64,000 nucleotides of DNA from Candidatus Aminicenantes bacterium. GTDB taxonomy: Bacteria > Acidobacteriota > Aminicenantia > Aminicenantales > Saccharicenantaceae. Below the pieces are notes generated by a model. That model ran no database searches. It was not told the origin of the DNA and was given only the letters and a program-made list of their open reading frames with translations. Below, piece after piece: positions 9,096-46,830 of this stretch. Every line of letters begins with the position of its first letter. Position 1 is the stretch's first letter. The stretch spans positions 7,713 through 71,712 of the forward strand of contig JBBIGP010000004.1 of NCBI GenBank assembly GCA_037447475.1. Direction: 5' to 3'. Position numbers and translations under genes: made by a program.

Positions 9096-9096
9096 G

Positions 9097-29119: not shown

Positions 29120-30039
29120 GGCCCCTCGCCGGCCCGCCGGCTGGCCCGGGAGTCCCATGCCTTCCGGACGACCGGCGACACGAGCAGGACGGGAACGGCC
29201 ACGGCGATGCCGATGACGGCATCGGTGAAATAATGGAAACGGCCGTAAACGGTCGAAACGTAGACGGACAGGACGATGGGGGCCAGCACCCAGAATCCCC
29301 ACCGGGCGTGTCTCTTGGCCATGAACCACATGACCGTGGCCGCGGCGCAGTGGGGGCTGGGGATGGTCCCGCCCGGGGCGTGGAAATGCGTCCGGATGTA
29401 CTCGGCGGCCTGTCCGAATCCGCGGACGGGGAGAGGCTCCGTCAAAAGGCCCCGGACGCTGTCCCAGTGCAGCGGGCCCTTGACGGGAAACAGGATGAAG
29501 CCCCATCCGCAGAGGAGGTTCACGAGCCCCAACCCGAAGAGATAATCCTCGTTGGCGGACTCGCCGCGCCGGAAATAGATGACCGCCCCGAGCAGGGGAT
29601 AGATGACGACGTAGGCGACGTAGACGAAGAACATCCAATCGGAGAGCAGGGGAGAATAGAGCTTCTGGATCCAGACGAGCGGCTGGGTCTTGAAGAGCGC
29701 GCTTTCCCAGCGGAGCACGGCGTTGTCGTTCCAGCCGAAGAACAGCAGCTGGAGATCGCGGCTCATGAGGTAGATCTGCAGCAAAAGGATCTGGACCGAT
29801 CCCGTCCGGACCAGGAATCGCAGCCAACGGGGACGCAGGCTGGGAAGAACGGCGACGGCGGCCAGATAGGGGAAAAGGAAGAGGAGGTGCCGCCCGATGA
29901 TCGGCCAGGGATCGGCCAGCCTCGCACGGAACACGACGGCCAGGAGGACGAGCACCGCGCTCCCGCCGAGGACCACGGCGTCGGCGGGCCTCAGGCCTAG
30001 CCCCAGGATGCGGACGGAGAGTGGACCGCCCTTGGTCAA
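29116..30039 (-). CDS. PAP2-superfamily membrane phosphatase/phosphotransferase (IPC-synthase-like)
   Basis: 307 aa polytopic; PAP2 motifs ...PSPHCAAATVMW (PSGH-like) and GRFHYFTDAVIG (SRxxxxxHxxxD-like). Confidence 0.6.
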   Translation of the reverse strand: MTKGGPLSVRILGLGLRPADAVVLGGSAVLVLLAVVFRARLADPWPIIGRHLLFLFPYLAAVAVLPSLRPRWLRFLVRTGSVQILLLQIYLMSRDLQLLFFGWNDNAVLRWESALFKTQPLVWIQKLYSPLLSDWMFFVYVAYVVIYPLLGAVIYFRRGESANEDYLFGLGLVNLLCGWGFILFPVKGPLHWDSVRGLLTEPLPVRGFGQAAEYIRTHFHAPGGTIPSPHCAAATVMWFMAKRHARWGFWVLAPIVLSVYVSTVYGRFHYFTDAVIGIAVAVPVLLVSPVVRKAWDSRASRRAGEGP

Positions 30040-31034: not shown

Positions 31035-31202
31035 GCCGCCCTCTCTGACAATCGCCCTCCGGTCGGGATGGAATGAAATGGGTTTGATTCTAGCAAAAGC
31101 CGAGGGCCGAGCCAAGCCCCCCCGGCGCCGGCCCCCGGCGCCGGACGCCCCGTCGGATGACCTCGCCCGGCCTCGGGCCAAGGACCGGCGGGAATGCCCC
31201 GG

Positions 31203-31867: not shown

Positions 31868-34576
31868 ATGAAAAAGCCGCTCATCGCGCTGGGCATGATA
31901 GCCCTGTTCCTCATGACGGCCGCCGTCTCCGCGCAGGAGCGCGGCTCGGTCCGCGGCGTCGTCAAGGACCAGGACGGGAACGCCATCCAAGGCGCCACCG
32001 CGACGATCGCGGGGGCATTCCTTCCGCGGGGGAGGGAGTTCGTCACCGGCCGTGACGGGATCTTCCTCTTTCAGGCCCTGCCGCCGGGCAATTATACGCT
32101 TCTCATCATCCATCCGCAGATGATGGACTATACGTCCGATGTCATCGTGGCCCTCGACCGGCAGACGGCCGTCAACGTCACGATGTCCGCCGTCGGCCGG
32201 GTCCAGGAGGAGATCACGGTCATGGCCGCCTCGCCCATCGTGGACCTGAAATCGACGTCGATCTCCGCGAGCTGGCACAAGGACCTCGTCGAGAAGCTGC
32301 CCATGGGCCGGTCCTACGCCTCGCTCTTCCAGCTGGCCCCCGGGGTCGCGGACAACCGCGATTTCGCGCCCAATGCCGGGGGGAACAAGCAGGACAACGT
32401 CTATCTCTACGACGGCTCGAACATCACGAATCCCCTTTTCGGGTATCTCGGGGCGAACTTCTCCGAGCTCGACATCCAGGAGGTCAACATCAAGAGGGGA
32501 GGCGTCACCGCCGAGTTCGGGCGGGCCGCGGGAATGGTCACCAACGCCGTCACTAAATCGGGCTCGAACACGGTCTCAGGCTCGATGCGGTTCATCTTCG
32601 AGCCCGCCGCGTTCACGGCCGGCTTCGTCGACCCCAACATCGTCACTAAATACAACCAGTACCAGCCGGCCGTCGGCGTCGGCGGCCCTCTCGTCAAGGA
32701 CAAGCTGTTCTGGTACGTCTCGGGGAACCTCCCTTACTCCCTGACCACGGGCCGGGTCAACAACTTAGGCAGCGTCCCGGATTCCAAGAGGACCTCGAAC
32801 GAGTTCTTCGGCAAGATCACCGCCAACCCCCACAAGGCCCACACGATCACCCTGAGCATCCGCAACAACGACTACAAGAACAGAGACGCGGGGATCGGCG
32901 TCAACGACCATCCGAGCGCCGCCTACGACAGCGAAGGATTGAACCGGATCATCTACGGATCTTGGGTCTGGACGATCTCCCAGAACACGATCCTCGAGAC
33001 CCGCTACAACCACGTCAACGAGGACTATTCCGCTGTTCCCATTACGGATCTCGGCTACCGCCCGGCCTTCGACATCAACAACCTTCCGGCCATGGGCTAT
33101 TTCCGGACGGCGACAGGCTATATCGTCGGCGGGGCCACGGCCAGCGGCCAGTTCGTCGGCGGCTATTCAATGAAAGACACCCAGAACTTTTTCCGGGATG
33201 AGCTCAAGTTCGTCCTGAGCCACTATGCGGATTTCCGCGGGCACTCCCATGTGCTGAAGGCGGGATTCTCTTACGACGACGGCGGGGAGTACCTGGACAG
33301 GATCGCCAACGGTTGGGGCTCCATCACCGTGACCACCTACGGAGGCCAGCCCGTTTTCCGGGCCGCGTATTACTCCGAGCAGGCCCCCCAGGATTCCCGG
33401 GGCCGGACCTATTCCATCTTCATACAGGACACGGCCACGATCGGCGAGCGCTTGACCCTGACCGCGGGCCTGCTCTTCAACCGGGACGAGTTCAGCGCCA
33501 AAACGGCCGCCGAAAAGAACACCTTCCTCAGATTCAGTTTCGAGCAGGAAGTCCAGCCGCGCATCGGGCTCGCGTTCACCCTCGACCCCAAAGCCGGCGA
33601 CAAGATCTACGCCAACTGGGGCCGTTACAACAACATGGACAACCGCAGCCTGTCCCGGGCCGCAGCCCCTATCCGGATCTTTCTGTCCGATGCCTATTTC
33701 CTCCGCTCGGACGGCTCCCTGATCGCCGACCTTCCCCGCACCGCGGAGACCGGCAAGGTCATCCTGCCAGGCCTCAAACCGACCTACACGGATGAGGTCG
33801 TGGGCGGATACAGCCGGCCGCTCGGCCGCGTCTGGAGCATCGATGTCTGGGGCCAGTATCGGACCATGAAGAACGTCATCGAGGATTTCCCGACCCGTAA
33901 CAGGGAAACCTCCCCAAGCCAGTATGTTTACGCAAACCTCAACGGGCAAACCATCTCTTATGGCGGGAACCCTGCGTTCGAAGCCGGCAAGGCCCGCCGC
34001 GTCTACAAAGCCGCCAGCTTCGAGCTCAAGAAGCAGTACGCGGACCGCTGGTCGATGACGTTCATGTACACCTGGAGCCGTCTCGAGGGGAACTGGGACC
34101 TCGACTATGCCGCGTCGGCGTTGTTCTACGCCTCTTCCGCTCTCGAGGATGGCCCCGGCCTGTACGTCAGCGACCCCAACCGCGACGGGCTCCTTATCGG
34201 GCACAGGACCCACGTCCTCAAGTTCTTCGGAAGCTGGGAATTCTACAAGAACTTCACCCTGGGCTGGTTCAGCCGGATCCAGAGCGGCCGTCCTTGGGAA
34301 TCGCGGGGCTTGGATTACGTCAACAGCTACCGCAGATACCTGGAGCCGGCCGGATCGAACACCCTCAAGGACTGGGGCAACCTCGACCTACAGGTGTCCT
34401 ACGCAATCCCCATTGGCCGGACGTTCCACGGCATAATTGAGGCCCGCATCATGAACCTCTTCAACGACCAGACGGCGCTGACCATCGACCAGCGCGCAGA
34501 CCAGCCCACTTTCAAGAACCCGACATCCTATGCGCCGCCGAGGAAGTTCGCACTCTCGTTCCACCTCAACTTCTGA
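31868..34576 (+). CDS. TonB-dependent-receptor-like outer-membrane beta-barrel with N-terminal carboxypeptidase-regulatory (CarbopepD_reg) domain
   Basis: 902 aa; signal peptide MKKPLIALGMIALFLMTAAVSAQE; VRGVVKDQDGNAIQGATATIAG...GNYTLLIIHP Ig-like domain; C-terminal ...FALSFHLNF beta-barrel terminus; AT-rich promoter region upstream. Confidence 0.75.
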   Translation: MKKPLIALGMIALFLMTAAVSAQERGSVRGVVKDQDGNAIQGATATIAGAFLPRGREFVTGRDGIFLFQALPPGNYTLLIIHPQMMDYTSDVIVALDRQTAVNVTMSAVGRVQEEITVMAASPIVDLKSTSISASWHKDLVEKLPMGRSYASLFQLAPGVADNRDFAPNAGGNKQDNVYLYDGSNITNPLFGYLGANFSELDIQEVNIKRGGVTAEFGRAAGMVTNAVTKSGSNTVSGSMRFIFEPAAFTAGFVDPNIVTKYNQYQPAVGVGGPLVKDKLFWYVSGNLPYSLTTGRVNNLGSVPDSKRTSNEFFGKITANPHKAHTITLSIRNNDYKNRDAGIGVNDHPSAAYDSEGLNRIIYGSWVWTISQNTILETRYNHVNEDYSAVPITDLGYRPAFDINNLPAMGYFRTATGYIVGGATASGQFVGGYSMKDTQNFFRDELKFVLSHYADFRGHSHVLKAGFSYDDGGEYLDRIANGWGSITVTTYGGQPVFRAAYYSEQAPQDSRGRTYSIFIQDTATIGERLTLTAGLLFNRDEFSAKTAAEKNTFLRFSFEQEVQPRIGLAFTLDPKAGDKIYANWGRYNNMDNRSLSRAAAPIRIFLSDAYFLRSDGSLIADLPRTAETGKVILPGLKPTYTDEVVGGYSRPLGRVWSIDVWGQYRTMKNVIEDFPTRNRETSPSQYVYANLNGQTISYGGNPAFEAGKARRVYKAASFELKKQYADRWSMTFMYTWSRLEGNWDLDYAASALFYASSALEDGPGLYVSDPNRDGLLIGHRTHVLKFFGSWEFYKNFTLGWFSRIQSGRPWESRGLDYVNSYRRYLEPAGSNTLKDWGNLDLQVSYAIPIGRTFHGIIEARIMNLFNDQTALTIDQRADQPTFKNPTSYAPPRKFALSFHLNF

Positions 34577-34799
34577 TCCGGCGTTTCGTTCGGGAAGAAA
34601 AGGGCGGCGACGTCTTCTTTTCGGCGGCGAGCACCCCGGCGGCCATGAACCCCCGGGGGGACATCTCCTGGATCCAGACCCGGATCGTCTCGAGAGGGGC
34701 GCCGATGGATTCGTGGACGGCCTCCGTGACGGCCGCGAGCAGGGCCTTCTTCTGATCGTCCGTCCGGCCTTCGAGGAGGTGGATCTCGATGAGCGGCAT
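34566..34799 (-). CDS. 4-oxalocrotonate tautomerase family protein
   Basis: MPLIEIHLLEGRTDDQKKALLAAVTEAVHESIGAPLETIRVWIQEM, catalytic Pro1 after Met. Confidence 0.7.
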   Translation of the reverse strand: MPLIEIHLLEGRTDDQKKALLAAVTEAVHESIGAPLETIRVWIQEMSPRGFMAAGVLAAEKKTSPPFSSRTKRRIRS

Positions 34800-34906: not shown

Positions 34907-35254
34907 ATGACCATAGCGACCCGAGACACGGACGGCGTTGTCATTTTCGACATCACGGGCGAGATCCGGCGCTCCGACAACATGGAAACGACTCTCCATC
35001 ACCTCGTCAAGTCCCACCTCGACCGGGGCAAGCGCAGGATCATGCTCAACTTGGAGAAGGTCGATTTCATCGACAGCTTCGGCGTCGGCGAGATCCTCGC
35101 TAGCTACATCTCCACCCAGAACCTGGGCGGGAGGTTCAAGCTCTTCAGCATCTCGAAAAAGCTCCTCCTCATCTTCCAGATCACGATGCTGACCAAGGTC
35201 CTCGACATCTACGAGGACGAGGGCTGCGCCCTGCGGAGTTTCGAACAGGCGTGA
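34907..35254 (+). CDS. STAS-domain anti-sigma-factor antagonist (SpoIIAA/RsbV-like)
   Basis: 115 aa; ...VVIFDITGEI...LNLEKVDFIDSFGVGEILASY... with phosphorylatable Ser in DSFGVG context. Confidence 0.8.
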   Translation: MTIATRDTDGVVIFDITGEIRRSDNMETTLHHLVKSHLDRGKRRIMLNLEKVDFIDSFGVGEILASYISTQNLGGRFKLFSISKKLLLIFQITMLTKVLDIYEDEGCALRSFEQA

Positions 35255-35281: not shown

Positions 35282-37849
35282 ATGCCTGACGACGGCCGGC
35301 TGAACAGGTTCCTGAACCGTTTCGGCTTCGCCGATGTCCGCGTCCCCGAAACGCGGGCCGTGTCCTATCTCTTCGCCCTCTTCTTCCTGACGACATTCTC
35401 GTTCTACATCATCAAGCCGGTCAAGGAGACCTTCCTCATCGGGGTGACTCCCGCCTGGTGGCCGTACGCGGACCTGGCCACGGCCCTGCTCATCGGCTTC
35501 GTCGTGGCCCTCAACGCCAGGCTCCTCAACCGCCTTCCGCGGCGGGCCTACTTGACGGGGACCGTCCTGTTCTTCGCCGCCTGCTTGTTCGTCTTCTGGT
35601 ACGTTTTCGACGCCGCCCTGCAGCTCCAGATCCGGACGCCCGTGATCCACTCCTCGGCCATTTTCGGCGTCATTCCCTTCCAGGTCGCCGTCCGCAACAT
35701 CTGGCCCCTTCCGGTGTTCGCCTTCAGCTTCTTTTCCGATGTCTTCATCGCCATGTCCGTCACCCAGTTCTGGATCGCGGTCAACGATACCCTCGATCCC
35801 TACCAGGCGAAGAGGACGGTCGGCCTGTTCGTCTCGGGGGGGCTGTTGGGCGGGATCGCCGGCGCCCTCCTGACGTCCCTCCTCGTCCGCGTCGTCGGCC
35901 CCGAGAACCTTCTCCTCGCCTGCCCCGGCATCCTCCTCGTCGTCCTGGCCGCCGTCCGCCTCGTCTACGGCGAGCAGAAAAAGCACAGGGGGGAGGCCGA
36001 GCCCTCGGCATCCCCGCCCAAGGCCCGGGTCGGCTACCTGGAGAGCTTCGGCGCCGTCCGGAGGAACAGGTATCTCCTGCTCCTGGCCGGGCTCCTGGCC
36101 TCGGCCATGGTCGCCGGGTCGCTCATCAACTATCAGTTCAAGATCGTCGTCAAGAGCGTCTTCGCGAGCAGCGTCGACCGGACCTCGTTCCTGGGCTCGT
36201 TCTTCTTCGCCATTCTCGTCCTCTCGACCCTTTTCCATCTGGCCGCCACGCGCCTCGTCCTGAAGAATTTCGGCATCCGGCTGGCCCTCCTCGTGGCCCC
36301 CGTGGTCCTGCTCCTCGGCTCGCTCTCGGTCTTCCTCCTCCCGGCCGGCGCCCTGATGGCCTGGGCCAGTCTCGTCAGGGGCGGCGACAAGATCTTCGAC
36401 AACACGATCGGCCAGTCGGTCCGGGAGCTGCTCTACATCCCCGTCCCGGACGAGATCAAGTACAAGGCCAAGATCTTCATCGACATGTTCGTCAACAAGT
36501 TCGCCGTCGGGCTCGGGGCCGGGCTGTTCCTCCTGCTCTACCACGCGTCGCGCTTCGCCTACAAGGCCGAACCGGCGCAGGTCCGGGAGGTCGGCGTCCT
36601 GGCCGTCGCCTTCATCGCCCTCTGGATGGTTCTCACGGGCGTCGTCTACGGGGAGTACCCGAGCGTCGTGAAGAAGGACCTGGCCCGCAAGTGGAAGGAC
36701 GCCGACAAGGTCGTCGAGGAGAGCGTGGACGTCGATGTGACCCGCCGCGTCTTCGACACCGTCCAGAGCCGGGAGCGGAGCGCGACCCTGTACGTCATGA
36801 ACGTCTTCGACCTCATGCGCCGCGGCCGCCTCAGCCCCGAGCTCAAGGAGCTCTTGGGATCCCAGAGGGACGAGCTCAGGGCCCGGTCCATGGACTGCTT
36901 GTTCGACGTCGGGGGAGAGGTCTTCTTCCAGGGGTTCGAGGAGGCCATCGCCGACGAGGACTTCGGGAAAGAGGTCGAGAAGGTCATCCAGTCGGACGAT
37001 TACAAGGCCCTCATGGAGGGACGCCTCGAGACGGTCGCCGGGTCCGCGTCGGAGATCGAGCGCATGGAAGCGGCCAGGCTCATCGGGATGATGGACCCGA
37101 CGCCCCGGGCCATGAGGGTCCTGAGCGTCCTTCTCCAGGACCCCTCGTCCGAGGTCGCAACGTACGCCCTCGACAGCGCGGCGATCCACCGGAGGAAAGA
37201 GCACATCCCCCTGGCTCTCTCCCAGCTGAGCAATCCCTTGACCTGCCAGGGCGCCCAGGCCGCCTTGGCCGCCTACGGCCCGGCCGCCGAGGAGGCCCTG
37301 AGAGCGGCCCTCCAGGACGAAGACCTGCCCCCCGGCGTCCGCCGGGCCATCCCCGATGTCCTGGGCCGGATCGGGACCCAGCGGGGGGCCGACATCCTTC
37401 TCGCCGAGCTCGGGAGGTGCGGCGAGGACATGGAGCCGGAGATTGTCGGAGCCCTTTACAGGATCCGCTCCGCCCGGCCGGGCGTTCTGTTCAAGGAGAA
37501 GAAGGTCCGTCCCGAGATCCTCCGCCTGGTCAGGAAAGCGGGGGAGATCTTCCTCGAGAGGGTCCTGGACGGACAGGACCCCGGCGCCACGGCGGCCCTC
37601 GACCTTCATGTCAAGCGGATTTTCGACCTGCTGACGCTCGTCCAACCGGCCGAGGACGTCGTCAAGGCCTACCAGAACATCCTTCAAGGGACGAAGCGGT
37701 CTGTCGATTATTCCCTCGAGCTTCTCGACAACCTGCTCGATCGGGAGCTCAAGAGGGCCCTCTTCCCGCTCCTCGAGGACCTCCCGCCCGAGGACAGGAG
37801 CGTCCGGCTGAGAAAGGCCCTTCGGGGCCTCGGCCGGGGCCGGGGTTGA
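35282..37849 (+). CDS. TLC/AAA-family (ATP:ADP antiporter-like) nucleotide transporter homologue fused to C-terminal HEAT/PBS-lyase-like repeats
   Basis: N-terminal ~480 aa polytopic with TLC-like signature FALFFLTTFSFYIIKPVKETFLI; C-terminal ~350 aa of repeated helical pairs (...QGAQAALAAYGPAAEEALRAALQDEDLPPGVRRAIPDVLGRIG...). Confidence 0.6.
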   Translation: MPDDGRLNRFLNRFGFADVRVPETRAVSYLFALFFLTTFSFYIIKPVKETFLIGVTPAWWPYADLATALLIGFVVALNARLLNRLPRRAYLTGTVLFFAACLFVFWYVFDAALQLQIRTPVIHSSAIFGVIPFQVAVRNIWPLPVFAFSFFSDVFIAMSVTQFWIAVNDTLDPYQAKRTVGLFVSGGLLGGIAGALLTSLLVRVVGPENLLLACPGILLVVLAAVRLVYGEQKKHRGEAEPSASPPKARVGYLESFGAVRRNRYLLLLAGLLASAMVAGSLINYQFKIVVKSVFASSVDRTSFLGSFFFAILVLSTLFHLAATRLVLKNFGIRLALLVAPVVLLLGSLSVFLLPAGALMAWASLVRGGDKIFDNTIGQSVRELLYIPVPDEIKYKAKIFIDMFVNKFAVGLGAGLFLLLYHASRFAYKAEPAQVREVGVLAVAFIALWMVLTGVVYGEYPSVVKKDLARKWKDADKVVEESVDVDVTRRVFDTVQSRERSATLYVMNVFDLMRRGRLSPELKELLGSQRDELRARSMDCLFDVGGEVFFQGFEEAIADEDFGKEVEKVIQSDDYKALMEGRLETVAGSASEIERMEAARLIGMMDPTPRAMRVLSVLLQDPSSEVATYALDSAAIHRRKEHIPLALSQLSNPLTCQGAQAALAAYGPAAEEALRAALQDEDLPPGVRRAIPDVLGRIGTQRGADILLAELGRCGEDMEPEIVGALYRIRSARPGVLFKEKKVRPEILRLVRKAGEIFLERVLDGQDPGATAALDLHVKRIFDLLTLVQPAEDVVKAYQNILQGTKRSVDYSLELLDNLLDRELKRALFPLLEDLPPEDRSVRLRKALRGLGRGRG

Positions 37850-37850
37850 A

Positions 37851-40034
37851 ATGGCCGGACGCGTCGTCTACAATGAGGGCGCAGGGGATGACATGCCCGA
37901 CTTCTACGTCTATCCCAAGACGGGCGATCCGTTCACCGTGCCGCTGAAGCCCGGCAAGATCACCATCGGCCGGGCGCCGACGAACGACCTCGTCCTTTCC
38001 GACCAGTTCAGCTCGGGATGTCACGCCTCCGTCTATCCGACGACAAGCGGATTCGTCCTTCTCGATCACGGCAGCAAGAACGGCACGTTCGTCAACGGCA
38101 AGAAGGTCACGGGGGAGATCCTCCTGGCCCGGGGGGACGAGATCCTCATCGGCTCGACGAGGATCTACTTCGACCGGGAGTTCCAGAGCAGCATCGAGAT
38201 GGTCGAGGGGACGACCTTCACCCACAGCTCGAACACCATCATCCAGGTCAAGGACATCCTGAAGAAGGCCCCCACGGCCGGCGACTACAGGACGCCCGGA
38301 GGGGAGCTCGACCTGGGGAAGCTCCAGCAGGAGCAGAAGATGATCGCGGTCATGGGGGAGGTCAGTCAGGCCCTCATCTACCACATGCCCCTCGACAAGC
38401 TGCTCAACCACATCATGGACGTTCTCATCCAATACCTGCCCATGGACCGGGGCGTCCTGATGCTCAAGGACCCGGCGACGGGCGAGCTCGCCCACAAGGT
38501 CGTCCGCGTCCAGAGCGGGTCCCTGAGGACGCAGAACATCGCCATCAGCAAGACCATCGTCCAGACCGCCGTCGAGAAGAACTCGGCCATCCTGCTGTCC
38601 GACATCCGGTCGGACGAGAGGTTCGGCGGCCAGGCCAGCGTCATCCAGGCCCAGATCCATTCGGCCATGTGCATCCCCCTCTGGAACAACCAGAACATTC
38701 TCGGGCTCATCTACGCCGACCGGGCCTCCCTCGTCGAGCAGTTCACGGAAGACGATCTGAAGCTGCTGACCCTGCTCGCCAACCTGGCCGCGGTCAAGAT
38801 CGAGAACGCCCGGCTCTACGAGAATTCCCTCAAAATGGAGCAGATGGAGCGCGAGATGGCGATGGCCGTCCAGATCCAGAAGAACTTCCTGCCCCGGGGG
38901 AACCCGTGGTTCGAACCCTACGACGTCAGCGGCAGCATGCGGGCCTGCCACCACGTCGGCGGGGACTACTACGATTTTCTGCCCGAGGCCGACGACCGGC
39001 TGGGCATCGTCATCGCCGACGTCTCGGGGACGGGGGTCAGCGCGGCCCTCCTCATGGCCAACCTGAGGGGGGCCCTGACCGAGAAGTTCCCGGTCACGCC
39101 GGACCTGGGCGAGCTGGTCGCCAAGCTCAACGACTTCGTCCATTCGAGCTCGGACAGCCATTGCTTCATTTCTTTTTTCCTGGCCGTCCTGGACCGCGCC
39201 CGGGACAGGCTGACCTACGTCAATGCCGGCCACAACCCCCCCCTGCTCGCGGACGATCGCGGCCGGATCAGCCGGCTCGAGAGCACGGGTCTCTGTCTCG
39301 GCATGTTCCCGGCCCGGGCCTACGAGCAGCGGACGATCGACCTCGGGCCGGGGGACGTGCTGTGCCTCTACACGGACGGGATCGTCGAGGGCCGGAACAA
39401 GGGCGGGGAGGAATTCGGGGAGGAGAGGCTCGCGGGGATCCTCCGGTCCGCCGCGGCCATGCCGGCCCGGGGGATCATGGAAAGGATCTACGAGGAGGTC
39501 CTCGCCTTCACGGACTGCTCCGCGGCCGGCGACGACATGACCCTCGTCGTCGTCCGGAAGAACCCGCGGCGGGAGGACGGCGAACGGTCTTCGACGGAAA
39601 GGGACGTGCGGGAGATCCGGGTCCCCGCCGCTCTCGAAGCCGTCGACCGCGTCAGGGAGTTCCTCCGGGCCTACATGGGCGAGCAACGGGTCCCCGACGA
39701 GGAGGCCCTGGCCGTCGAGCTCTCGCTCCACGAGATCTGCGTCAACATCGCGATGTACGCCTACTCCGGGGGTCCGGCGGGAGAGATGGCCGTCCGGATC
39801 TGGAACGATGACGGCATGCTGTTCCTCGAGATCCGCGACCGGGGCGTCCCCTTCGACCCCGCGGGAAAGCCGGACCCCGACCTTCTCGTCAAGGTCCGCC
39901 GCGGGCAGCGGGGCGGATTAGGCGTCTTTTTCTTCAAGACCCTCATGGACGGCTTCACTTACCGCCGGGAGAACGGGGAGAACGTCCTGACCGTCCGCAA
40001 GCGGATCCCGCCCCGGCCCGCTCCGGTTCAGTAG
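37851..40034 (+). CDS. FHA - GAF - PP2C(SpoIIE/RsbU-like phosphatase) - HATPase_c(RsbW-like anti-sigma kinase) four-domain partner-switching protein
   Basis: FHA: ITIGRAPTNDLVLSDQFSSGCHASVY...GSKNGTFVNGKKV; GAF region ~aa 170-330; PP2C motifs GGDYYDF, IADVSGTGVSAALLMANLRGAL, YVNAGHNPPLL, LYTDGIVEG; C-terminal ATPase ...ELSLHEICVNIAMYAY...GMLFLEIRDRGVPFDP. Confidence 0.8.
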   Translation: MAGRVVYNEGAGDDMPDFYVYPKTGDPFTVPLKPGKITIGRAPTNDLVLSDQFSSGCHASVYPTTSGFVLLDHGSKNGTFVNGKKVTGEILLARGDEILIGSTRIYFDREFQSSIEMVEGTTFTHSSNTIIQVKDILKKAPTAGDYRTPGGELDLGKLQQEQKMIAVMGEVSQALIYHMPLDKLLNHIMDVLIQYLPMDRGVLMLKDPATGELAHKVVRVQSGSLRTQNIAISKTIVQTAVEKNSAILLSDIRSDERFGGQASVIQAQIHSAMCIPLWNNQNILGLIYADRASLVEQFTEDDLKLLTLLANLAAVKIENARLYENSLKMEQMEREMAMAVQIQKNFLPRGNPWFEPYDVSGSMRACHHVGGDYYDFLPEADDRLGIVIADVSGTGVSAALLMANLRGALTEKFPVTPDLGELVAKLNDFVHSSSDSHCFISFFLAVLDRARDRLTYVNAGHNPPLLADDRGRISRLESTGLCLGMFPARAYEQRTIDLGPGDVLCLYTDGIVEGRNKGGEEFGEERLAGILRSAAAMPARGIMERIYEEVLAFTDCSAAGDDMTLVVVRKNPRREDGERSSTERDVREIRVPAALEAVDRVREFLRAYMGEQRVPDEEALAVELSLHEICVNIAMYAYSGGPAGEMAVRIWNDDGMLFLEIRDRGVPFDPAGKPDPDLLVKVRRGQRGGLGVFFFKTLMDGFTYRRENGENVLTVRKRIPPRPAPVQ

Positions 40035-40921
40035 AGGACCTTCTCTTCTCCGTTCATCCTGACGAGCCTGTCGATCTCCTTGAGGACGAGGTCCCTGCGG
40101 ACGAGCACGGCCTTGATCTCCTCGTCCGTGAGGTACTCGCCCACGACGCCCTTGACGGCCTCGGCATCGAGCGTCTTGATCTTGTCGACGATGGCCCGGG
40201 GCAGCTCGCTCATGAGCTTGGGGCCTTCCTTGTGCTTTTCCGTGTAGATCAGGCTCTTCGTGAACTTCCCCGAGGCCCGGAAGGACCGGGAGTGGTCGAT
40301 GAGGATCATCCGCCAGTCGGGCTGGGTGATGAGGATCTGGTTCTGGTGGCGGTCCTCGTTGGCGATGAGATTGTCCCAGAACCGCTGCAGGTAGGTCGCC
40401 CGGTTCCAATAATAGACCCTGATGGGCGGGACCTTGAGGTTCTTCTGCTCCTTGTCGCGGAGCGTGATGCAGTCCTCGACCCAGAGCTGGCAGGACCCGC
40501 GCTCCGCGCGGTAACGTCGCTCGACGGTCGGGGGGACCATGTTGAGCCCGAGGTGCTTGTCGAGGAGATAGGCGGCGACCTCGTAGTTCCAACCCTCCCA
40601 ATACCCGCCCATCCGGCCTTGGGCGTTCTTCCACAGGGCCCGGTGGGACACGTCGTCCTTTTTCAGGGTCAGGACCCAGGGGCTGGTCACGGATTCCCTT
40701 CCTGTCATCTGCCGGCTGTCGACGACCTCGGCCGTCCTCAGGAACTCCTCCCACTTCTCCCGCTCGGCCAGGTCTTCGGGCGTGAACTGGGCGGCGCCGA
40801 GTCGCGGGGCCGGCCCTCCGGGGCCGTTGGCCGGGCTCATGGCGTGGCCCAGGAGGACCACGGACAAGACGCCGGCGGCGATGGCGCCGGACACGATGGA
40901 TACGATCGCGGACTTTTTCAT
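40028..40921 (-). CDS. secreted protein with atypical kinase-like domain (HipA/CtkA/PI3-4K-like motifs), paralog 1
   Basis: Signal peptide/anchor MKKSAIVSIVSGAIAAGVLSVVLL; conserved EEFLRTAE, WKN, YEVAAYLLDKHLGLNMVPPT, catalytic-loop-like ANEDRHQNQIL (NxDxHxxN), metal-binding-like ILIDHSRSF; shares ~45% identity by eye with the next gene. Confidence 0.5.
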   Translation of the reverse strand: MKKSAIVSIVSGAIAAGVLSVVLLGHAMSPANGPGGPAPRLGAAQFTPEDLAEREKWEEFLRTAEVVDSRQMTGRESVTSPWVLTLKKDDVSHRALWKNAQGRMGGYWEGWNYEVAAYLLDKHLGLNMVPPTVERRYRAERGSCQLWVEDCITLRDKEQKNLKVPPIRVYYWNRATYLQRFWDNLIANEDRHQNQILITQPDWRMILIDHSRSFRASGKFTKSLIYTEKHKEGPKLMSELPRAIVDKIKTLDAEAVKGVVGEYLTDEEIKAVLVRRDLVLKEIDRLVRMNGEEKVLY

Positions 40922-40970
40922 TCTTCCCTCCCTGATCTATCCGGTCGATGGCCCAGCCATCTCCTCTCCC

Positions 40971-41807
40971 TCAGTAGAGGACGGCGGCTTCGCCCTGTTC
41001 CCGGACCATCTGGCGGATCTCCTTGAGCAGGAGGTCGCGGCGGGCCAGTACGGCCCGGATCTCCTCGTCCGTGAGGTACTCTCCCACAGCGGCCCGGATG
41101 GTCTCGAACGATAACTCCCGGATCCGGTCCACGAACGAGCGTGGCAGGCGCCGGAAGAGGAACGGCGTCCCCTGCATGGACGTCTGCAGGCCCCGCTGTC
41201 CGAACATCAGCCTTTTCGTGTGCTCCTTCGTCGCGCGGAACGACCGCGAGTGGTCGATGAGGATCATCCGCCAGTCCTCGGTGTAGAGGATGTTCTGCTG
41301 GTTCCGGTCCTCGTTGGCGATGAGACTGTCCCAGGCGCGGGTCAGCCACTTCATCTTTTCCGTGTGTTCCGTCACGGAGTCGGGAATGCGGATGTTGTTG
41401 TCGACGATCTTTTCCAGGCTGTGCTTGTTCTCGGCCCAGAGGACGAGGGCGCCGCTCTGTCCCTGGAACTCCCGCTCGACGGCCGGTGGGATCATGTTCA
41501 AGCCGATGAGCTTGTCGAGGCGGTAGGCGGCGATCTCGAATCGCCAGCCCTCGTAGAAGCCCAGCTGCATGCCGCTCGGGTTCTTCCAGCAGGCCGCCGC
41601 CTCGCGGTCTCCCTGTTTGAGAGTGAGCTTGAAGGGCTTGGTCACCCCTTCGCCGATCTCCTTGAAGCCGGCGATCTCGGCCGTCCTCAGGAACTCCTCG
41701 AACGCTTCTCTCGCGGCGATCTCGTCCGGGGTGAATTGCCCGAACAGGGCGGCCGGAGCCGCTATGAGCAGGAGAAGGCAAACGGCGGCCCGAAACGCAC
41801 ATATCAT
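40971..41807 (-). CDS. secreted protein with atypical kinase-like domain, paralog 2
   Basis: Trimmed to MICAFRAAVCLLLLIAAPAALFGQ signal peptide; same motifs: EEFLRTAE, WKN, FEIAAYRLDKLIGLNMIPPA, ANEDRNQQNIL, ILIDHSRSF, C-term ...GEYLTDEEIRAVLARRDLLLKEI...VLY. Confidence 0.5.
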   Translation of the reverse strand: MICAFRAAVCLLLLIAAPAALFGQFTPDEIAAREAFEEFLRTAEIAGFKEIGEGVTKPFKLTLKQGDREAAACWKNPSGMQLGFYEGWRFEIAAYRLDKLIGLNMIPPAVEREFQGQSGALVLWAENKHSLEKIVDNNIRIPDSVTEHTEKMKWLTRAWDSLIANEDRNQQNILYTEDWRMILIDHSRSFRATKEHTKRLMFGQRGLQTSMQGTPFLFRRLPRSFVDRIRELSFETIRAAVGEYLTDEEIRAVLARRDLLLKEIRQMVREQGEAAVLY

Positions 41808-41915
41808 CGAATCTTCCTCCGATGGCACCCTGATGCTCCTATCATAAGGAGGGTCAAGGGGGAAATCAAGCCCAGCCCGAGCCCCGTTTCCGCTTCGTGT
41901 GGCCGTCGAGGGGGA

Positions 41916-43406
41916 TCAGGCTTTGGCAAGGGCATCCTGGGCGGTCTTCCGCCTTCGGTAGGCGGGAATGATCTTGAGACAGATGCCGATCAGGACGGCC
42001 ACGGCGAAGACGTTGAGGAGAGCGTAGTTTTCGATGTGAAGTCCGAGAAGGTGGACGCCGATGAGGACGGCCAGCGCTGAAAGCGTGTCTCCCCCCCTGA
42101 CAAAGAAGGTGTCGATAGCCGCCTTGGCTTTATACTTCTCCTCCCGCTTGGTGACCAGGAACAGCGCGGCCTTGGTCGTATTCTGAAGGGAATAGTCGGT
42201 GCCGTTCTCGAAGGCCTTGACCCAGCGGACGAGCACGAGAACGGCTCCGAAGGAAATCAGCGTGTAGCCGCCCAGGGCGATGAGAGGAAGGAAGAGCAAG
42301 GCCCCTCCCACGCCGATCCACTTGAAGATGCGCGAGACCAGGAAGAGCTGGATGATGAGGGCGATCAGATTGGTCAGGAACTGGTAGTTCATGAATGCGC
42401 TGTGAATGGCCTTGCTCTCCGTTCCGGCGGGCAAGGCCGGGGACGCCGCCGGGCGCTTCCGATCGGCTCCATCGTCGGGAAGCGGGACGAGCCGGCCCCG
42501 CGGGCCTCCCGCGGCTCCATCGGCTATCGACTCCCTGACCGTGACGGCGGTGATGATATATTCCCCGGTCGCATTGATGAAATTATAGAGGCCGATCATG
42601 GCCGCGATGAGAAGAAGGTAGCGGCTCTTGAAGATCAGCCGGAACCCTCCTCCCGCTCTTAGCGGCTGTTCACTGGCGACGCTTTCCTCCTCGGCCTTGG
42701 CCAGGCCCTTTTCGCGGGCCTCGCGGGTGTCCCGGACGGCCCGGTTGTGGATATGCCAGGCCAAGGCGATGCAGAGCAGCAGGATGAGGCCCGCGATGAG
42801 CATGAGCTCGTATTCCCAGTTCTCCCCCAGGATATCCCTCAACCGCTTCATGATCGGCAAGGTCGCGACGAGCCATCCGAGCGTGGCTCCCAGGGCGACG
42901 AGCGGAAACGTGCGCTTTCCGACCTCGTCCGAATAGAGGTCGTTCGCGAAGCCCCAGAACTGGGCGATCACGAAATAATTGAATATGCCGATCCAGATGA
43001 AGAACATGATCCCCATGGGCTTGACGGCCATCCCGCTCAAGTTGAGGAAATAGAAGACGACGAGGTTGGAGATGAAGAATGATGTTGTCCAAGTGATAAG
43101 GATATGCCGAGGCACCCTGGAAGCGAGGCGACTGAATGCCTTGATGACGAAGATGAAGAGAACGGCTTGGGCCCCGCTCAGGTAGCTCTTGACTTGAGGG
43201 GAACCCTGGTCAACAAGGAGAAGCGACTCGCGCAGCGGCTTGAGGATGTAGTAGGCCAGAAGCAAAAGAAAGATGTTGAGGGCGAGCAGGAGGGCCTTCA
43301 GGGCTTCCCCCTTGCGGACGTCGGCGAACAGCCTGAGGAAGCCGTAGCCGATGTTCGAAGTAGCGCCGCCCGACGGCGGGATCCCCCCGCGGATTCTATC
43401 CCCCAT
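41916..43406 (-). CDS. TLC/AAA-family ATP:ADP antiporter-like nucleotide transporter (Npt/Tlc homologue)
   Basis: 496 aa, ~12 TM; TLC signature LKALLLALNIFLLLLAYYILKPLRESLLLV; internal Gly/Pro/Ala-rich ~40-aa loop insertion (…ADGAAGGPRGRLVPLPDDGADRKRPAASPALPAGTE…). Confidence 0.65.
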   Translation of the reverse strand: MGDRIRGGIPPSGGATSNIGYGFLRLFADVRKGEALKALLLALNIFLLLLAYYILKPLRESLLLVDQGSPQVKSYLSGAQAVLFIFVIKAFSRLASRVPRHILITWTTSFFISNLVVFYFLNLSGMAVKPMGIMFFIWIGIFNYFVIAQFWGFANDLYSDEVGKRTFPLVALGATLGWLVATLPIMKRLRDILGENWEYELMLIAGLILLLCIALAWHIHNRAVRDTREAREKGLAKAEEESVASEQPLRAGGGFRLIFKSRYLLLIAAMIGLYNFINATGEYIITAVTVRESIADGAAGGPRGRLVPLPDDGADRKRPAASPALPAGTESKAIHSAFMNYQFLTNLIALIIQLFLVSRIFKWIGVGGALLFLPLIALGGYTLISFGAVLVLVRWVKAFENGTDYSLQNTTKAALFLVTKREEKYKAKAAIDTFFVRGGDTLSALAVLIGVHLLGLHIENYALLNVFAVAVLIGICLKIIPAYRRRKTAQDALAKA

Positions 43407-43427: not shown

Positions 43428-45311
43428 TCAGATCAGGACATGGCCCTCCCCGCGGGTCTCGATGAGCCTTTTGATGATCCGGATGATGAGGTCACGGCGG
43501 GAATGGAGGGCTTCGATCTCTTCTTTGTCGAGATGGGGCGACAGAAGGAGGAAGACCGCCTTCCTGTCCCACCCCAGGAGCTTGCCGAAGAGGTCTTTCG
43601 AGCACTTGCGGATCTCGCATCCGGGCGGAAGGCTCTTCCGGGGCGCGAAGGCTTCCGAGAAATCGACGCGGTAGATCCGCTGGTCGTCGCGGCTGACGAG
43701 CACGTCCCGGTCGTTGTCGCACTCTTCGTGGACGAGCATCTCGAAGAGCCGCAGGTCTTCCCGGTCCCGCTCGAAGGCCGCGGGCCGGGCCGGGGCGAGC
43801 TTCTGCTCCTTCCAGTCGAATTCCGAGATGGCGTTCTCGACGAAGACCTGCAGGGAGCCGGGGATCCCGTCGATCTCCCGCTCGATGACAGGCGGGACGA
43901 ACGCCAGCTTGAGGTACTTGGCGAGGTCGTAAGCGGCCAGCTCGTAGCGGTAGCTGTCGGGGAGCGGGTGAGGGCGGCGCCGGTCGATGTACTTGAACAT
44001 GGCCCTGCGCGTGACGCCGTCCTTCTCGAGGGTCACCCGCCAAGGCTCCGTCCGCCCGGCGGCGGCCGTCTTGCGGGCCATGGCCTTGGCCGTCCTGAGG
44101 AACTCCTCGACGGCTTTGGCCGAAGCGAGCGGTTCCGGGCGGGTGACGACCGGAGAGCTGCGGGCGGCGGCCTCTTCCGTCTCGCCCCAGAGCTCGAACC
44201 GTCCGTCCTCGTAGATGAGGGCCGCGGGCAGGCCGCCGTAAAACTCGGAGATCCCGGTGTCGATGACGAAGACCTTGCCGCCGAAGCGGCTGACGGTCTC
44301 GAGGGTCGCGATGGGGCTCGACCCGGCGTTGTTGACAGGCAGATAGCTGTGGCCGACGACGATGGCCCGGGCCCCGAGGTTGTCCAGGATACGGTCGACC
44401 TCGGCCTGAGCGGTGCCTTCGATATGGGTCGTCAGGCCCCGGAACCAGACCGGGCCGTCCGGCGCGTAGACGAGCTTGGGCTTGAAGGGCCTAAAATAGC
44501 GATGAGGGGACTTGATCCTCTCCCGGAACTCCTCGAGCTCCTTTCTCATGAGGTCGTTCGTCTCGCGCAACGGCCGTTTCGAGTAGTGCTCGTTGACGCC
44601 CCCGTGGAGGTAGACGACGTCGTTGATCTTGATGATGGTGTTCTTCGTCAGCAGCCAGCTTCCGTACAGGTCGTTGAAGGCGTTGACATAGGCCAGGCGG
44701 GCCTCCCGGTCGTGGCGGATGACACGCTGCCAGTAGGCCCGCAGAGCTTCGTCCGTCCCGAGATCCAGGCCCTCGGCCTCGGCCTGGCGGCGCCGGTCGC
44801 GGGGGAGCCTGGCGATGTAGGCCGCTTCCAGGGACCTGCGGACGCCGTCCGGGAGGAAGGAGACGAACTGCTCGGGCGTGACGTACTGAGGATAGTCCAG
44901 GGCGATGCCGGTGATGTTCATCTCCTCGTGGTTGCCGATGAGGACGTGGACCAAGCCGCCGGCCGCCTCGGCTTCCTTTTCGAGGCGCATGAGAAGGTCC
45001 ATGATCTTCCTGGCGTCGGGGCCGCGGTCCATGATGTCGCCGAGCTGGACGAGGTGGGCCGTCCCGGCGGTCCATCGGAGGTCCGCGTCGATGACGCCGA
45101 CCTCGGGGTTCGAGAGGATGAAGACGAACCGGTCGTAGTCGCCGTGCAGGTCGCCGACGGCGACGACGCGGCCGACGCCGGACCAGGCATAGGGGATCTC
45201 GGAGGCGGGAGAGAGCGGGACATGGAGCAGGATGAGCAGGAGAAGAATAAACAGACCTTTGAGGGGCCGACATGGGGCCTGTCGCGACCATCCCCTGCTG
45301 CGTTCGGGCAT
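43428..45311 (-). CDS. secreted calcineurin-like metallophosphoesterase fused to divergent atypical-kinase-like domain (paralog 3)
   Basis: Signal peptide ...LFILLLLILLHVPLSPA; MPE motifs VVAVGDLHGDYDRF, LVQLGDIMDRGPDARKIM, VLIGNHEEMN, ...IVVGHS...; C-terminal 250 aa aligns with paralogs 1/2 (EEFLRTAK, YELAAYDLAKYLKLAFVPP, ...GHVLI) but catalytic-loop region altered (HEECDNDRDVLV; YRVDFSEAF). Confidence 0.6.
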   Translation of the reverse strand: MPERSRGWSRQAPCRPLKGLFILLLLILLHVPLSPASEIPYAWSGVGRVVAVGDLHGDYDRFVFILSNPEVGVIDADLRWTAGTAHLVQLGDIMDRGPDARKIMDLLMRLEKEAEAAGGLVHVLIGNHEEMNITGIALDYPQYVTPEQFVSFLPDGVRRSLEAAYIARLPRDRRRQAEAEGLDLGTDEALRAYWQRVIRHDREARLAYVNAFNDLYGSWLLTKNTIIKINDVVYLHGGVNEHYSKRPLRETNDLMRKELEEFRERIKSPHRYFRPFKPKLVYAPDGPVWFRGLTTHIEGTAQAEVDRILDNLGARAIVVGHSYLPVNNAGSSPIATLETVSRFGGKVFVIDTGISEFYGGLPAALIYEDGRFELWGETEEAAARSSPVVTRPEPLASAKAVEEFLRTAKAMARKTAAAGRTEPWRVTLEKDGVTRRAMFKYIDRRRPHPLPDSYRYELAAYDLAKYLKLAFVPPVIEREIDGIPGSLQVFVENAISEFDWKEQKLAPARPAAFERDREDLRLFEMLVHEECDNDRDVLVSRDDQRIYRVDFSEAFAPRKSLPPGCEIRKCSKDLFGKLLGWDRKAVFLLLSPHLDKEEIEALHSRRDLIIRIIKRLIETRGEGHVLI

Positions 45312-45477: not shown

Positions 45478-46830
45478 GTGACGAAAGGACGGTGGACCGT
45501 GCGTTTCGGATCGTTCGTTGGTGTCATAGGGCTTGTGGGAATGTTTGTCGTTCTTGCCGGGGTTTCCGGCTGCAGGGGAGGCGGGCGGCCGGTCCCCTCC
45601 GAGGATGTCGCTGTGACGGTCAAGCCGGGCGTCGAGGTCTTCCTCGAGAGATATGTCGGGCTCGTGGAGGGCAAGCGCGTCGGCCTGATCACCAACCCGA
45701 CGGGAGTGGATGGGCGCCTGCGGTCGACGGTGGACCTGTTCGCCGGGAGCCCCGATATCGACCTGGTCGCGCTCTATGGCCCCGAACACGGCGTCAGGGG
45801 GAACGCGCAAGCCGGCGAATACGTGCCGTTCTACATCGACGACAAGTACGGTTTGCCCGTTTTCAGCCTCTACGGACAGTCGTTCAAGCCCCCGCCGGGC
45901 ATGCTCAAGGACATCGACGAGCACATGCGGTCGTTCGACACGGACATCGCCGGGAAGGTCCCCGAGAAAGCCATGGTCGAGAGCGTCGACGTCCTCGTCT
46001 TCGACGTCCAGGACGTGGGGACGAGGGTCTACACCTATATCGCCACCATGGCTTACGCGATGCAGGCGGCGGCCGAGAGCGGCATCGAGGTCATCGTCCT
46101 GGACCGCCCGAACCCCGTCAACGGCGTGGACATGGAGGGGCCGATCCTGGAGTATCCCGCATTCAGCTCGTTCGTCGGGCTCTATCCCGTCCCTGAGCGC
46201 TTCGGCATGACGATGGGCGAGCTGGCCCTGCTCTTCAACGACAGGTTCCTGGAGAAGAAGGCCCGTCTGACGGTCGTCGCCATGGAGGGCTGGAAGAGGC
46301 CGATGTGGTTCGACGATACGGGACTGCCCTGGATCATCCCTTCGCCCAACATGCCGACCCTCGACACGGCCACGGTCTATCCGGGCCAGGTCTATATCGA
46401 GGGGACGAACATGTCGGAAGGCCGGGGTACGACCCGGCCGTTCGAGCTGTTCGGAGCGCCTTGGATCGACGGCCACGAGCTGGCGAAAAGGCTCAACGGG
46501 CTCGGCTTGCCGGGCGTCGTCTTCCGGGAGACCTGGTTCACGCCGTGGTTCTCCAAGTTCCAAGGGCAGCTCTGCGGAGGCTGCCAGGTCCATGTCACGG
46601 ACAGGGAGGCATACCGGTCGTTCGGGACCGCGCTGCACGTCATCAAGACGGTCCGGGACATGTATCCGGACAAGTTCGCCTTCCATGCGGACTACTTCGA
46701 CAAGGTCATGGGGACGGACAAGGTCCGCCGGGCTCTCGAAGCGGGGGAGACCGTCCCAGCGATCCTCGAGAGACTGGAGCCCGGGCTGGCCGCCTTCGCC
46801 GCGCTCCGCCGCCCGTATCTGCTCTATTAG
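45478..46830 (+). CDS. DUF1343 family protein (exo-beta-N-acetylmuramidase NamZ-like), lipoprotein
   Basis: 450 aa; lipobox VLAGVSGC; conserved ...VGLITNPTGVD...VALYGPEHGVRG...VLVFDVQDVGTRVYTYI...LDRPNPVNG... Confidence 0.75.
   Translation: MTKGRWTVRFGSFVGVIGLVGMFVVLAGVSGCRGGGRPVPSEDVAVTVKPGVEVFLERYVGLVEGKRVGLITNPTGVDGRLRSTVDLFAGSPDIDLVALYGPEHGVRGNAQAGEYVPFYIDDKYGLPVFSLYGQSFKPPPGMLKDIDEHMRSFDTDIAGKVPEKAMVESVDVLVFDVQDVGTRVYTYIATMAYAMQAAAESGIEVIVLDRPNPVNGVDMEGPILEYPAFSSFVGLYPVPERFGMTMGELALLFNDRFLEKKARLTVVAMEGWKRPMWFDDTGLPWIIPSPNMPTLDTATVYPGQVYIEGTNMSEGRGTTRPFELFGAPWIDGHELAKRLNGLGLPGVVFRETWFTPWFSKFQGQLCGGCQVHVTDREAYRSFGTALHVIKTVRDMYPDKFAFHADYFDKVMGTDKVRRALEAGETVPAILERLEPGLAAFAALRRPYLLY

Follow-up and report, generated by a model that had tools for sequence, protein, structure and literature searches.

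From family profiles, structural models and comparative gene order, we describe here a conserved gene neighbourhood of Candidatus Aminicenantes in which two transporters of the TLC family are placed in different company: one, which carries a fused HEAT-repeat domain (NTT-HEAT, 855 aa), lies within a partner-switching operon (operon 1), and the other, unfused (TLC496, 496 aa), lies in a second operon (operon 2) among kinase-fold and phosphoesterase proteins with signal-like N-termini. The locus belongs to a 64,000-nt stretch of DNA (hereafter the window) from a Candidatus Aminicenantes bacterium (GCA_037447475.1, contig JBBIGP010000004.1, positions 7,713-71,712 of the forward strand). Our favoured explanation, a composite one that spans both operons and draws on gene context only, is that the locus would support regulated adenine-nucleotide traffic serving extracytoplasmic phospho-enzymes; we give it a probability of about 0.42. 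The host is a free-living sediment bacterium, a fermenter that is neither a parasite nor an organelle, and the G+C content of the window is 62-70%. Gene order was derived from open reading frame (ORF) calling guided by G+C content at third codon positions (GC3), and the genes from 28115 to 48574 were scanned with Pfam profiles for assignment to families, to which NCBIfam matches were added (Table 1).

NTT-HEAT is encoded by a single uninterrupted ORF and matches Pfam TLC (PF03219; E 2e-12, 47.2 bits, gathering cut-off 21), Pfam MFS_1 and, at residues 650-708, HEAT_2 (E 6e-9); by sequence, its HEAT domain also retrieves AlphaRep/HEAT entries of the PDB. In the AlphaFold2 model of the protein (mean predicted local distance difference test score, pLDDT, 78.6), residues 21-481 form 12 long membrane helices and residues 484-849 an all-alpha solenoid, which the 12-transmembrane (TM) topology places in the cytoplasm. 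The top five Foldseek matches of this model are AtNTT1/CpNTT1 structures (target-relative TM-scores of 0.76 for 9j3l and 0.71 for 9j3n), and the 2025 cryo-electron microscopy entries of AtNTT1 and CpNTT1 are the only solved structures matched by sequence for either transporter. The motifs FWxAVND, AKR, RELLYIP and KYKAKxFID of NTT-HEAT align to CpNTT1, and the charged signature motifs (FW.FAN[DE]; [AG]KR; [KR]E..Y[IL]P; K.K.K..ID) are nearly invariant in both the NTT-HEAT and the TLC496 subfamilies. Among 1.84 billion representative proteins, 7358 relatives of NTT-HEAT were found at E <= 1e-3, most of them 800-1100 aa long, the longest carrying an extra cyclic nucleotide monophosphate (cNMP)-binding domain. 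Full-length homologues of about 850 aa number in the hundreds, so the fusion is neither a frameshift nor an assembly artefact. That the HEAT region might be a separate ORF was likewise ruled out, the frame being continuous and the fusion conserved. Between TM3 and TM4, this protein and its closest relatives have about 25 additional residues (~113-139; 35600-35700), which are modelled with low confidence and which most NTT-HEAT proteins lack.

TLC496, for which a 100% identical protein is present in a public collection, scores higher against Pfam TLC (E 2e-16, 60.3 bits), displays about 12 hydrophobic segments in its hydropathy profile, and shares with CpNTT1 the aligned motifs AQFWGFAND, GKR and REEKYKAKAAID. 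The transporter domains of the two proteins are only remotely paralogous, at 30% identity over 166 aa (E 1e-11). Their closest homologues come from Candidatus Aminicenantes metagenome-assembled genomes and are labelled variously as 'AAA family ATP:ADP antiporter', 'ATP/ADP translocase/HEAT repeat protein' or 'MFS transporter'. The initial annotation had assigned both proteins to the TLC family on the strength of about 12 predicted TM helices and a shared N-terminal signature, with a cytoplasmic HEAT domain fused to the longer copy, and had asked for PF03219 and MFS profiles as a check; the scores above the gathering threshold, the additional MFS_1 match of the 855-aa protein, the continuous ORF, the HEAT_2 match and the 12 modelled helices uphold these assignments. 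The Gly/Pro/Ala-rich insertion of TLC496, which it placed in a central loop, is supported neither in that position nor as a functionally meaningful feature: the insert sits in the TM7-TM8 loop, predicted to be periplasmic, rather than in the central TM6-TM7 loop, varies in both length and sequence, and is absent in many orthologues. We therefore reject it as a functional module.

Operon 1 brings a STAS gene together with a PP2C phosphatase and an RsbW-like kinase and is thus a partner-switching module, with all three parts present: a STAS protein bearing a phosphorylatable serine, a HATPase_c_2 serine kinase and a SpoIIE-type PP2C. The STAS protein is of the RsbV/SpoIIAA type (NCBIfam TIGR00377, 59.9 bits, cut-off 53.45); its gene ends 27 nt upstream of NTT-HEAT, and its Ser57, which belongs to the DSxG motif, is retained by 65/65 orthologues. 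The protein encoded downstream of NTT-HEAT contains, according to Pfam, FHA (37-101), GAF (181-317), SpoIIE (381-569; 172.6 bits) and HATPase_c_2 (591-717; 90 bits) domains, and the N, G1 and G2 boxes are conserved in its RsbW-like kinase domain. Phosphatase and kinase are fused here and in L001, the locus whose NTT-HEAT is 90% identical to ours; in L003-L006 (e.g. L003 12590-14712; L005 12586-14711) and in most relatives they are encoded by separate genes, which overlap by 4 bp. The fusion places the two opposing activities of the switch in a single polypeptide. Pfam detects no sigma factor among the genes from 28115 to 48574. Since the transporter is the sole non-regulatory protein of operon 1, its HEAT solenoid is a candidate docking platform for the switch, and the locus clearly exemplifies a partner switch with a transporter, and not a sigma factor, as its likely target.

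The composition of this downstream protein is that of the initial annotation, which had also proposed that the protein docks on the HEAT domain and that its gene follows NTT-HEAT at a distance of 1-2 bp (37849/37851) with translational coupling. The docking proposal is consistent with the synteny, and the STAS protein, whose gene the initial annotation had not noted, or the RsbW-like kinase appears at least as likely a partner, and probably a likelier direct one than the phosphatase protein as a whole. The coupling is itself unlikely, as it follows from the longest ORF: the start of the FHA-GAF-PP2C gene is most likely not the ATG at 37851 but lies at 37893, since the region 37851-37892, upstream of MPDFYVYP, is not conserved even in L001, more distant relatives start at a Met equivalent to 37893, and a promoter-like element (TTGAAA-17-TACAAT) is found at 37846-37874. 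With this start the intergenic gap is 43 nt, and it is 23-40 nt in relatives.

In operon 2, TLC496 is flanked on the same strand and with short gaps by genes for kinase-fold proteins and a phosphoesterase. K297, K285 and the C-terminal 240 residues of the 627-aa phosphoesterase are paralogous; K285 is 47% identical to K297, and the motifs DRNQQN and LIDHSRSF are common to both. None of the three matches a Pfam family, and NCBIfam gives only a weak match to the SCO1664 family. The AlphaFold2 model of K297 (pLDDT 82) has fold matches to zebrafish Fam20C (score 18.9), Hydra Fam20 (18.7), the Golgi casein kinase of Caenorhabditis elegans (18.2), PI4KII-alpha (18.1) and CtkA, a secreted protein of Helicobacter (14.8); Foldseek agrees. 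K297 and K285 both retain, along with the kinase fold, the features of Fam20/PI4KII-like proteins, namely the ATP-binding Lys-Glu pair, the D-x-x-x-x-N loop (here a D-R-H-x-N catalytic loop) and the metal-binding Asp. In the C-terminal domain of the 627-aa protein, the Lys, the Glu and the DFS motif are present but the DRH..N catalytic loop is missing in every lineage; from its sequence this domain looks like a pseudokinase. The N-terminal part of the same protein matches Pfam Metallophos with the PPP-family motifs GDxHG, GDxxDRG and GNHE, and its NCBIfam matches to ApaH, PrpE and PrpA/B are weak. In all three proteins a hydrophobic segment comes after a positively charged N-terminus, the predicted signal peptide of the 627-aa protein being strong; by a heuristic based on hydropathy and lipobox, 86/91 homologues have signal-like N-termini and 53 have lipobox-like motifs. 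The two operons are convergent, with a 3' overlap of 7 bp (40028-40034) between the PP2C-kinase gene and K297, and no convincing intrinsic terminator was found between them.

This organization is conserved in Aminicenantes. The sample comprised 79 loci from different Aminicenantes genomes, with NTT-HEAT proteins 38-91% identical to that of the window (the 80 loci kept were all from Aminicenantes), and counts are given as loci with the feature over loci with enough flanking sequence. The FHA-GAF-PP2C gene is found downstream of NTT-HEAT in 68/68 loci, the STAS gene upstream in 62/67 and the RsbW-like kinase in 35/63. In operon 2, considering the 25 single-copy loci with 6-kb flanks, K297 is present in all 25, TLC496 in 24 and the phosphoesterase in 23. 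In 31/79 loci, NTT-HEAT is tandemly duplicated. In this tandem clade, TLC496 and the phosphoesterase have moved to a divergent position upstream of the STAS gene, and the pair is still adjacent in roughly two thirds of the loci. The duplicated pair (in L034, L037, L038, L041, L044 and L051-L057, among others) lies between the STAS and FHA-GAF-PP2C genes, and the two copies are about 33-36% and 40-43% identical to the window protein. In one such locus (L053, on the complete chromosome CP070825.1), where the two copies occupy 3490-5985 and 6001-8499, the FHA-GAF gene (8543-9871, 442 aa) ends about 50 residues into the PP2C domain, gives no SpoIIE match and is overlapped by a TonB-plug ORF on the opposite strand; truncation or decay of this copy, or a mistake in the assembly, may explain this.

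The association also recurs at much greater distance, in a set of 80 metagenome loci found via a distant NTT-HEAT subgroup (25-30% identical to the window NTT-HEAT; G+C 35-68%). Here a cNMP_binding protein is encoded directly downstream of NTT-HEAT in 46/66 loci, and REC-PP2C phosphatases (e.g. L102, L109) and histidine kinases are frequent neighbours. We infer that NTT-HEAT is invariably tied to a signalling protein of the cytoplasm, with the HEAT solenoid as the only plausible interface. In 9-10 of these loci, the gene directly upstream of NTT-HEAT, and on its strand, is an orthologue of TLC496 (40-43% identity, about 400 bits with a TLC496 hidden Markov model); another 5-7 have a different unfused TLC gene at that position, and many NTT-HEAT loci show no second TLC gene in the vicinity. 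In seven loci, the gene directly upstream of the unfused TLC encodes a protein of a 560-640-aa family (A10) with the motifs YLxKFD, HxDxRxxN and IDFGS, its TLC partner being a TLC496 orthologue in six of them, four of which are among the 9-10 above, and another unfused TLC in L157. A10 copies with an intact N-terminus start with a lipoprotein-type signal (a hydrophobic segment in L157); in two truncated copies no export signal is seen. Genes for putatively exported Metallophos or PAP2 phosphatases lie interspersed at L129, L136, L097, L106 and L163-165; at L136 a PAP2 lipid-phosphatase gene separates the TLC496 orthologue from NTT-HEAT, and L106 unites a PPP-like Metallophos protein and a predicted exported protein of the K297 type with NTT-HEAT and a cNBD protein. 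The pairing of TLC paralogues, which the initial annotation had noted, is thus a recurrent theme, and its company of putatively exported kinase-like and phosphatase proteins speaks for a functional module and against adjacency by chance. In two unrelated contigs (L102 3-1118; L157 58-1167), an Omp85-superfamily gene stands ahead of the lipoprotein-TLC-NTT-HEAT cluster, which hints at an outer-membrane component of the module.

In the mechanism that we propose for regulated nucleotide traffic, the RsbW-like kinase would phosphorylate Ser57 of the STAS protein and the PP2C, under the control of its FHA and GAF domains, would remove the phosphate. Docked on the HEAT solenoid, the switch would act through the phosphorylation state of Ser57, which would either open and close the transporter or read the state of the latter; in other phyla the cNMP-binding protein would take over this role for NTT-HEAT. 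TLC496, for its part, would exchange adenine nucleotides across the inner membrane, in the simplest case ATP outwards against ADP (and inorganic phosphate) inwards. A periplasmic kinase needs a phosphoryl donor, and the sole candidate gene for its supply in these operons belongs to the ATP/ADP-translocase family; the exported ATP would thus provide the kinase-fold proteins with a donor that their compartment normally lacks. Envelope proteins, glycans or lipids would be phosphorylated by the exported Fam20/PI4KII-like proteins, and the exported PPP, PAP2 and Metallophos enzymes would reverse or limit this phosphorylation. NTT-HEAT would be the regulated paralogue, controlled by the partner switch or by cyclic nucleotides, and would serve as valve, return path or sensor. 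The two TLC copies do lie in clearly different functional contexts, and the guess of the initial annotation, made from their different domain structures, of ATP out and ADP in for one copy against a regulatory role for the other agrees with the gene neighbourhoods. The most specific form of the proposal, in which free-living bacteria (Aminicenantes and unrelated metagenome lineages) run ATP-dependent periplasmic phosphorylation with a TLC carrier exporting ATP for ADP, we regard as doubtful. Such a system would be the bacterial counterpart of the eukaryotic secretory-pathway kinases and their luminal ATP supply.

Several points weigh against regulated nucleotide traffic for extracytoplasmic phospho-enzymes. 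We know of no demonstration of export-biased exchange for the TLC family in bacteria. Both transporters fall far below the cut-off of TIGR00769, the NCBIfam model of exchangers of nucleoside tri- and diphosphates (35.2 bits for NTT-HEAT and 48.8 for TLC496, against 387.2), and neither should therefore be filed as an ATP/ADP antiporter by homology alone. The tandem clade (about 31/79 loci) has no RsbW-like kinase next to it, nor adjacent genes for K297, K285 or any active kinase of the K297 type, and some 7/23 of its loci are also without TLC496 and the phosphoesterase nearby. Export was judged with the hydropathy and lipobox heuristic, not with a trained predictor, and the kinase nature of A10 is a matter of motifs, since its comparison with K297 by hhalign is not significant, it matches no Pfam family and no PDB entry by sequence, and its HipA_2 matches are weak. 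The functional reading as a whole rests on gene neighbourhood, from which we infer the substrate, the direction of transport, the contact of the HEAT domain with the STAS protein or the kinase, and the periplasmic targets. All characterised TLC members, moreover, import nucleotides or cofactors (PMC5381601; PMC1951785).

This last point is an argument for a scavenging role, the best-placed of the alternatives, which we nevertheless consider rather unlikely: both TLC proteins would import nucleotides (ATP, other nucleoside triphosphates, NAD or similar) from sediment necromass, like the class I/II NTTs of parasites, the metallophosphoesterase would trim external nucleotides or dinucleoside polyphosphates, and the partner switch would tune uptake to energy status. 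The weak resemblance of the phosphoesterase to the nucleotide hydrolases ApaH and PrpE fits such a role, as does the TonB-dependent-receptor-like outer-membrane protein encoded just upstream (31868-34576); however, the latter is not a conserved neighbour, and PAP2 and PPP-type phosphatases are atypical of nucleotide salvage. Scavenging also leaves without a role the two putatively exported Fam20/PI4KII-like proteins, whose catalytic motifs are intact, and the kinase-like lipoproteins encoded beside TLC496 orthologues elsewhere.

That NTT-HEAT transports nothing and acts as a sensor (transceptor) is to our mind unlikely. On this view the HEAT domain would relay the occupancy of the TLC domain to the STAS protein, the PP2C and the kinase, or to cNMP-binding proteins; the true output (e.g. 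a sigma factor or an enzyme) would be encoded elsewhere, and TLC496 alone would transport. The absence of an obvious output gene from operon 1 is in keeping with this, as is the constant pairing of NTT-HEAT with signalling proteins, often together with a second unfused TLC gene, and the conservation of NTT-HEAT between lineages (25-30%) is far below that of TLC496 (40-43%). Nevertheless, the charged residues of AKR, RELLY and K..K.FID are nearly invariant in the NTT-HEAT clade, as they would be in an active carrier, and many NTT-HEAT loci, as noted, lack a second TLC gene in the vicinity.

A substrate other than a nucleotide seems improbable. The TLC-like proteins would in that case move an envelope lipid or a phospho-sugar that is phosphorylated and dephosphorylated by the PI4KII-like proteins, PAP2 and metallophosphatases, with a donor from elsewhere. 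In favour of this reading, the TIGR00769 scores are very low, K297 is as close to the lipid kinase PI4KII as to Fam20C, the PAP2 gene at L136 stands between the two transporter genes, and the next-best Foldseek matches after the NTTs, with similar TM-scores, are the transporters of lysolipid and sphingosine-1-phosphate SPNS2 and MFSD2A. Any MFS folds superpose about equally well, however, whereas sequence profiles specifically select TLC and the solved NTTs, including the charged motifs; and the phosphoryl donor of a periplasmic kinase would be left unexplained. Lastly, it is very improbable that the adjacency is meaningless, with neighbours merely inherited within Aminicenantes and each TLC protein independent of the other: although the dense sampling is mostly from one phylum and some tandem-clade genomes (e.g. 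L053) lack TLC496 beside the NTT-HEAT operon, the pair stays adjacent after rearrangement within Aminicenantes and recurs, in another order and on the same strand, in contigs of 35-66% G+C whose NTT-HEAT is only 25-30% identical, with phosphatases and kinase-like exported proteins recurring alongside.

Other features surround the two operons. The TonB-dependent-receptor-like gene adjoins operon 1 here and in L001/L002 and is not found there in more distant relatives. The tautomerase-like gene, upstream of the STAS gene and divergent from it, keeps this position in L001-L006, and the two may share a regulatory region. A run of NAD-dependent epimerase/dehydratase genes (28115-31181, minus strand) lies just upstream of the locus; the corresponding run in L001 (1394-6002) includes PAP2 and Rce1-like genes, and an epimerase gene also follows NTT-HEAT in the distant locus L129. 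These neighbours may point to a link with envelope glycan or lipid modification. An Rfam scan detected no riboswitch or other RNA element at the locus, two tRNAs being its sole matches in the window.

Table 1. Features of the locus in window coordinates, and positions of family A10 in the distant loci
Feature	Position	Strand	Remarks
tRNA genes	11647-11718; 20797-20882		Rfam
TonB-dependent-receptor-like outer-membrane protein	31868-34576	+	902 aa, beta-barrel, CarboxypepD_reg domain
4-Oxalocrotonate-tautomerase-like protein	34566-34799	-	77 aa
STAS anti-sigma-factor antagonist	34907-35254	+	115 aa, first gene of operon 1; Pfam STAS E 4.7e-11
NTT-HEAT	35282-37849	+	855 aa; Pfam TLC, MFS_1, HEAT_2
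NTT-HEAT, transporter domain	35282-36730	+	residues 1-483, 12-TM TLC/NTT-type MFS fold
NTT-HEAT, C-terminal HEAT/alpha-solenoid domain	36731-37849	+	residues 484-855, same ORF
FHA-GAF-PP2C(SpoIIE)-RsbW-like kinase fusion	37893-40034	+	probable start; longest ORF from 37851
K297, Fam20C/PI4KII-like kinase-fold protein	40028-40921	-	297 aa, predicted exported
K285, paralogue of K297	40971-41828	-	285 aa, predicted exported; ATG probably 41807
TLC496, unfused TLC-family transporter	41916-43406	-	496 aa
TLC496, Gly/Pro/Ala-rich insert	42402-42536	-	~residues 291-335
PPP-type metallophosphoesterase with pseudokinase-like domain	43428-45311	-	627 aa, predicted exported; first gene of operon 2
NamZ	45478-46830	+	
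A10, L102	1102-2850		
A10, L158	488-2221		
A10, L129	1-1428		
A10, L136	2-1912		
A10, L157	1170-2834		
A10, L141	3-1124		
A10, L149	2-1525		

TLC/NTT transporters are textbook markers of energy parasitism, and why NTTs should occur in free-living bacteria, and what role the widespread NTT-HEAT fusion plays there, has been an open question since 2017; the conserved neighbourhoods turn it into a testable hypothesis. If ATP is delivered to the periplasm for Fam20-like kinases, as in the most specific form of the proposal, this would account for these 'parasite-type' transporters in free-living bacteria, it would overturn the working assumption that ATP-driven phosphorylation does not occur there, and the locus would encode a bacterial analogue, or possibly an ancestor, of secretory-pathway kinase systems. 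If the periplasmic ATP reading is false, the locus is still a partner switch with a likely transporter target. Searches of the literature for periplasmic ATP, for bacterial Fam20 proteins and for NTTs associated with exported kinases returned nothing relevant. It is the conserved regulatory and extracytoplasmic context that is new, as it is not described in the literature searched.

The NTT-HEAT architecture itself is not new, since it was published in 2017: Major, Embley & Williams (Genome Biol Evol) described NTT-HEAT fusions as a monophyletic group, widespread in free-living bacteria, of which some members carry a fused cNBD or have one encoded after them and whose function is unknown, and they already counted one Aminicenantes sequence in this clade (PMC5381601). 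The window protein shares with the clade the TLC/NTT domain, the C-terminal HEAT domain and homology along its full length to hundreds of proteins, 800-1100 aa in size, some of which are NTT-HEAT-cNBD forms. It differs in that no cNMP-binding protein is fused to it or encoded downstream, the gene being instead bracketed by STAS and FHA-GAF-PP2C(-RsbW-like kinase) genes; the 2017 paper includes neither this partner-switch context nor the recurrent unfused TLC partner and the exported kinase-like and phosphatase genes (PMC5381601). With the canonical ATP/ADP translocases (Rickettsia Tlc1, Chlamydia Npt1/NTT1, plastid AtNTT1; structures 9j3j-9j3o), both transporters have in common the 12-TM fold, which for TLC496 is predicted from hydropathy, and the charged motifs; they are only about 20% identical to them, score 35 and 49 against 387 with TIGR00769, and belong to a free-living fermenter.

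The regulatory module resembles the Rsb and SpoII systems (RsbV-RsbW-RsbU; SpoIIAA-SpoIIAB-SpoIIE) in its STAS phospho-serine, its GHKL-type HATPase_c_2 kinase, its SpoIIE-type PP2C and the sensory N-terminal domains of the latter. In contrast to these systems, no sigma factor is nearby, a HEAT-bearing transporter is inserted between the STAS protein and the phosphatase, and phosphatase and kinase are fused, the kinase not being adjacent in the tandem clade. Partner switches with outputs other than a sigma factor are known, such as HsbA/HsbR, BtrV/W/U and SypA/SypE. The kinase-fold proteins differ from Fam20C, Fam20B and PI4KII by their low sequence identity (14-22%), by their predicted location in a bacterial periplasm, and by their association with a transporter of the TLC family; in eukaryotes, ATP is imported into the lumen of the endoplasmic reticulum and Golgi by SLC35 carriers, e.g. 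SLC35B1/AXER. Finally, STAS domains regulate other transporters, as in the C-terminal STAS of SulP/SLC26 proteins and in MlaB with the MlaFEDB complex, and the genetic coupling of a STAS protein to a membrane transporter is common to these and to the present locus. Here, however, the STAS protein is a separate one of the RsbV type with a kinase and a phosphatase of its own, and the transporter with which it is associated is a TLC protein with a HEAT domain and not an ATPase or a SulP core.

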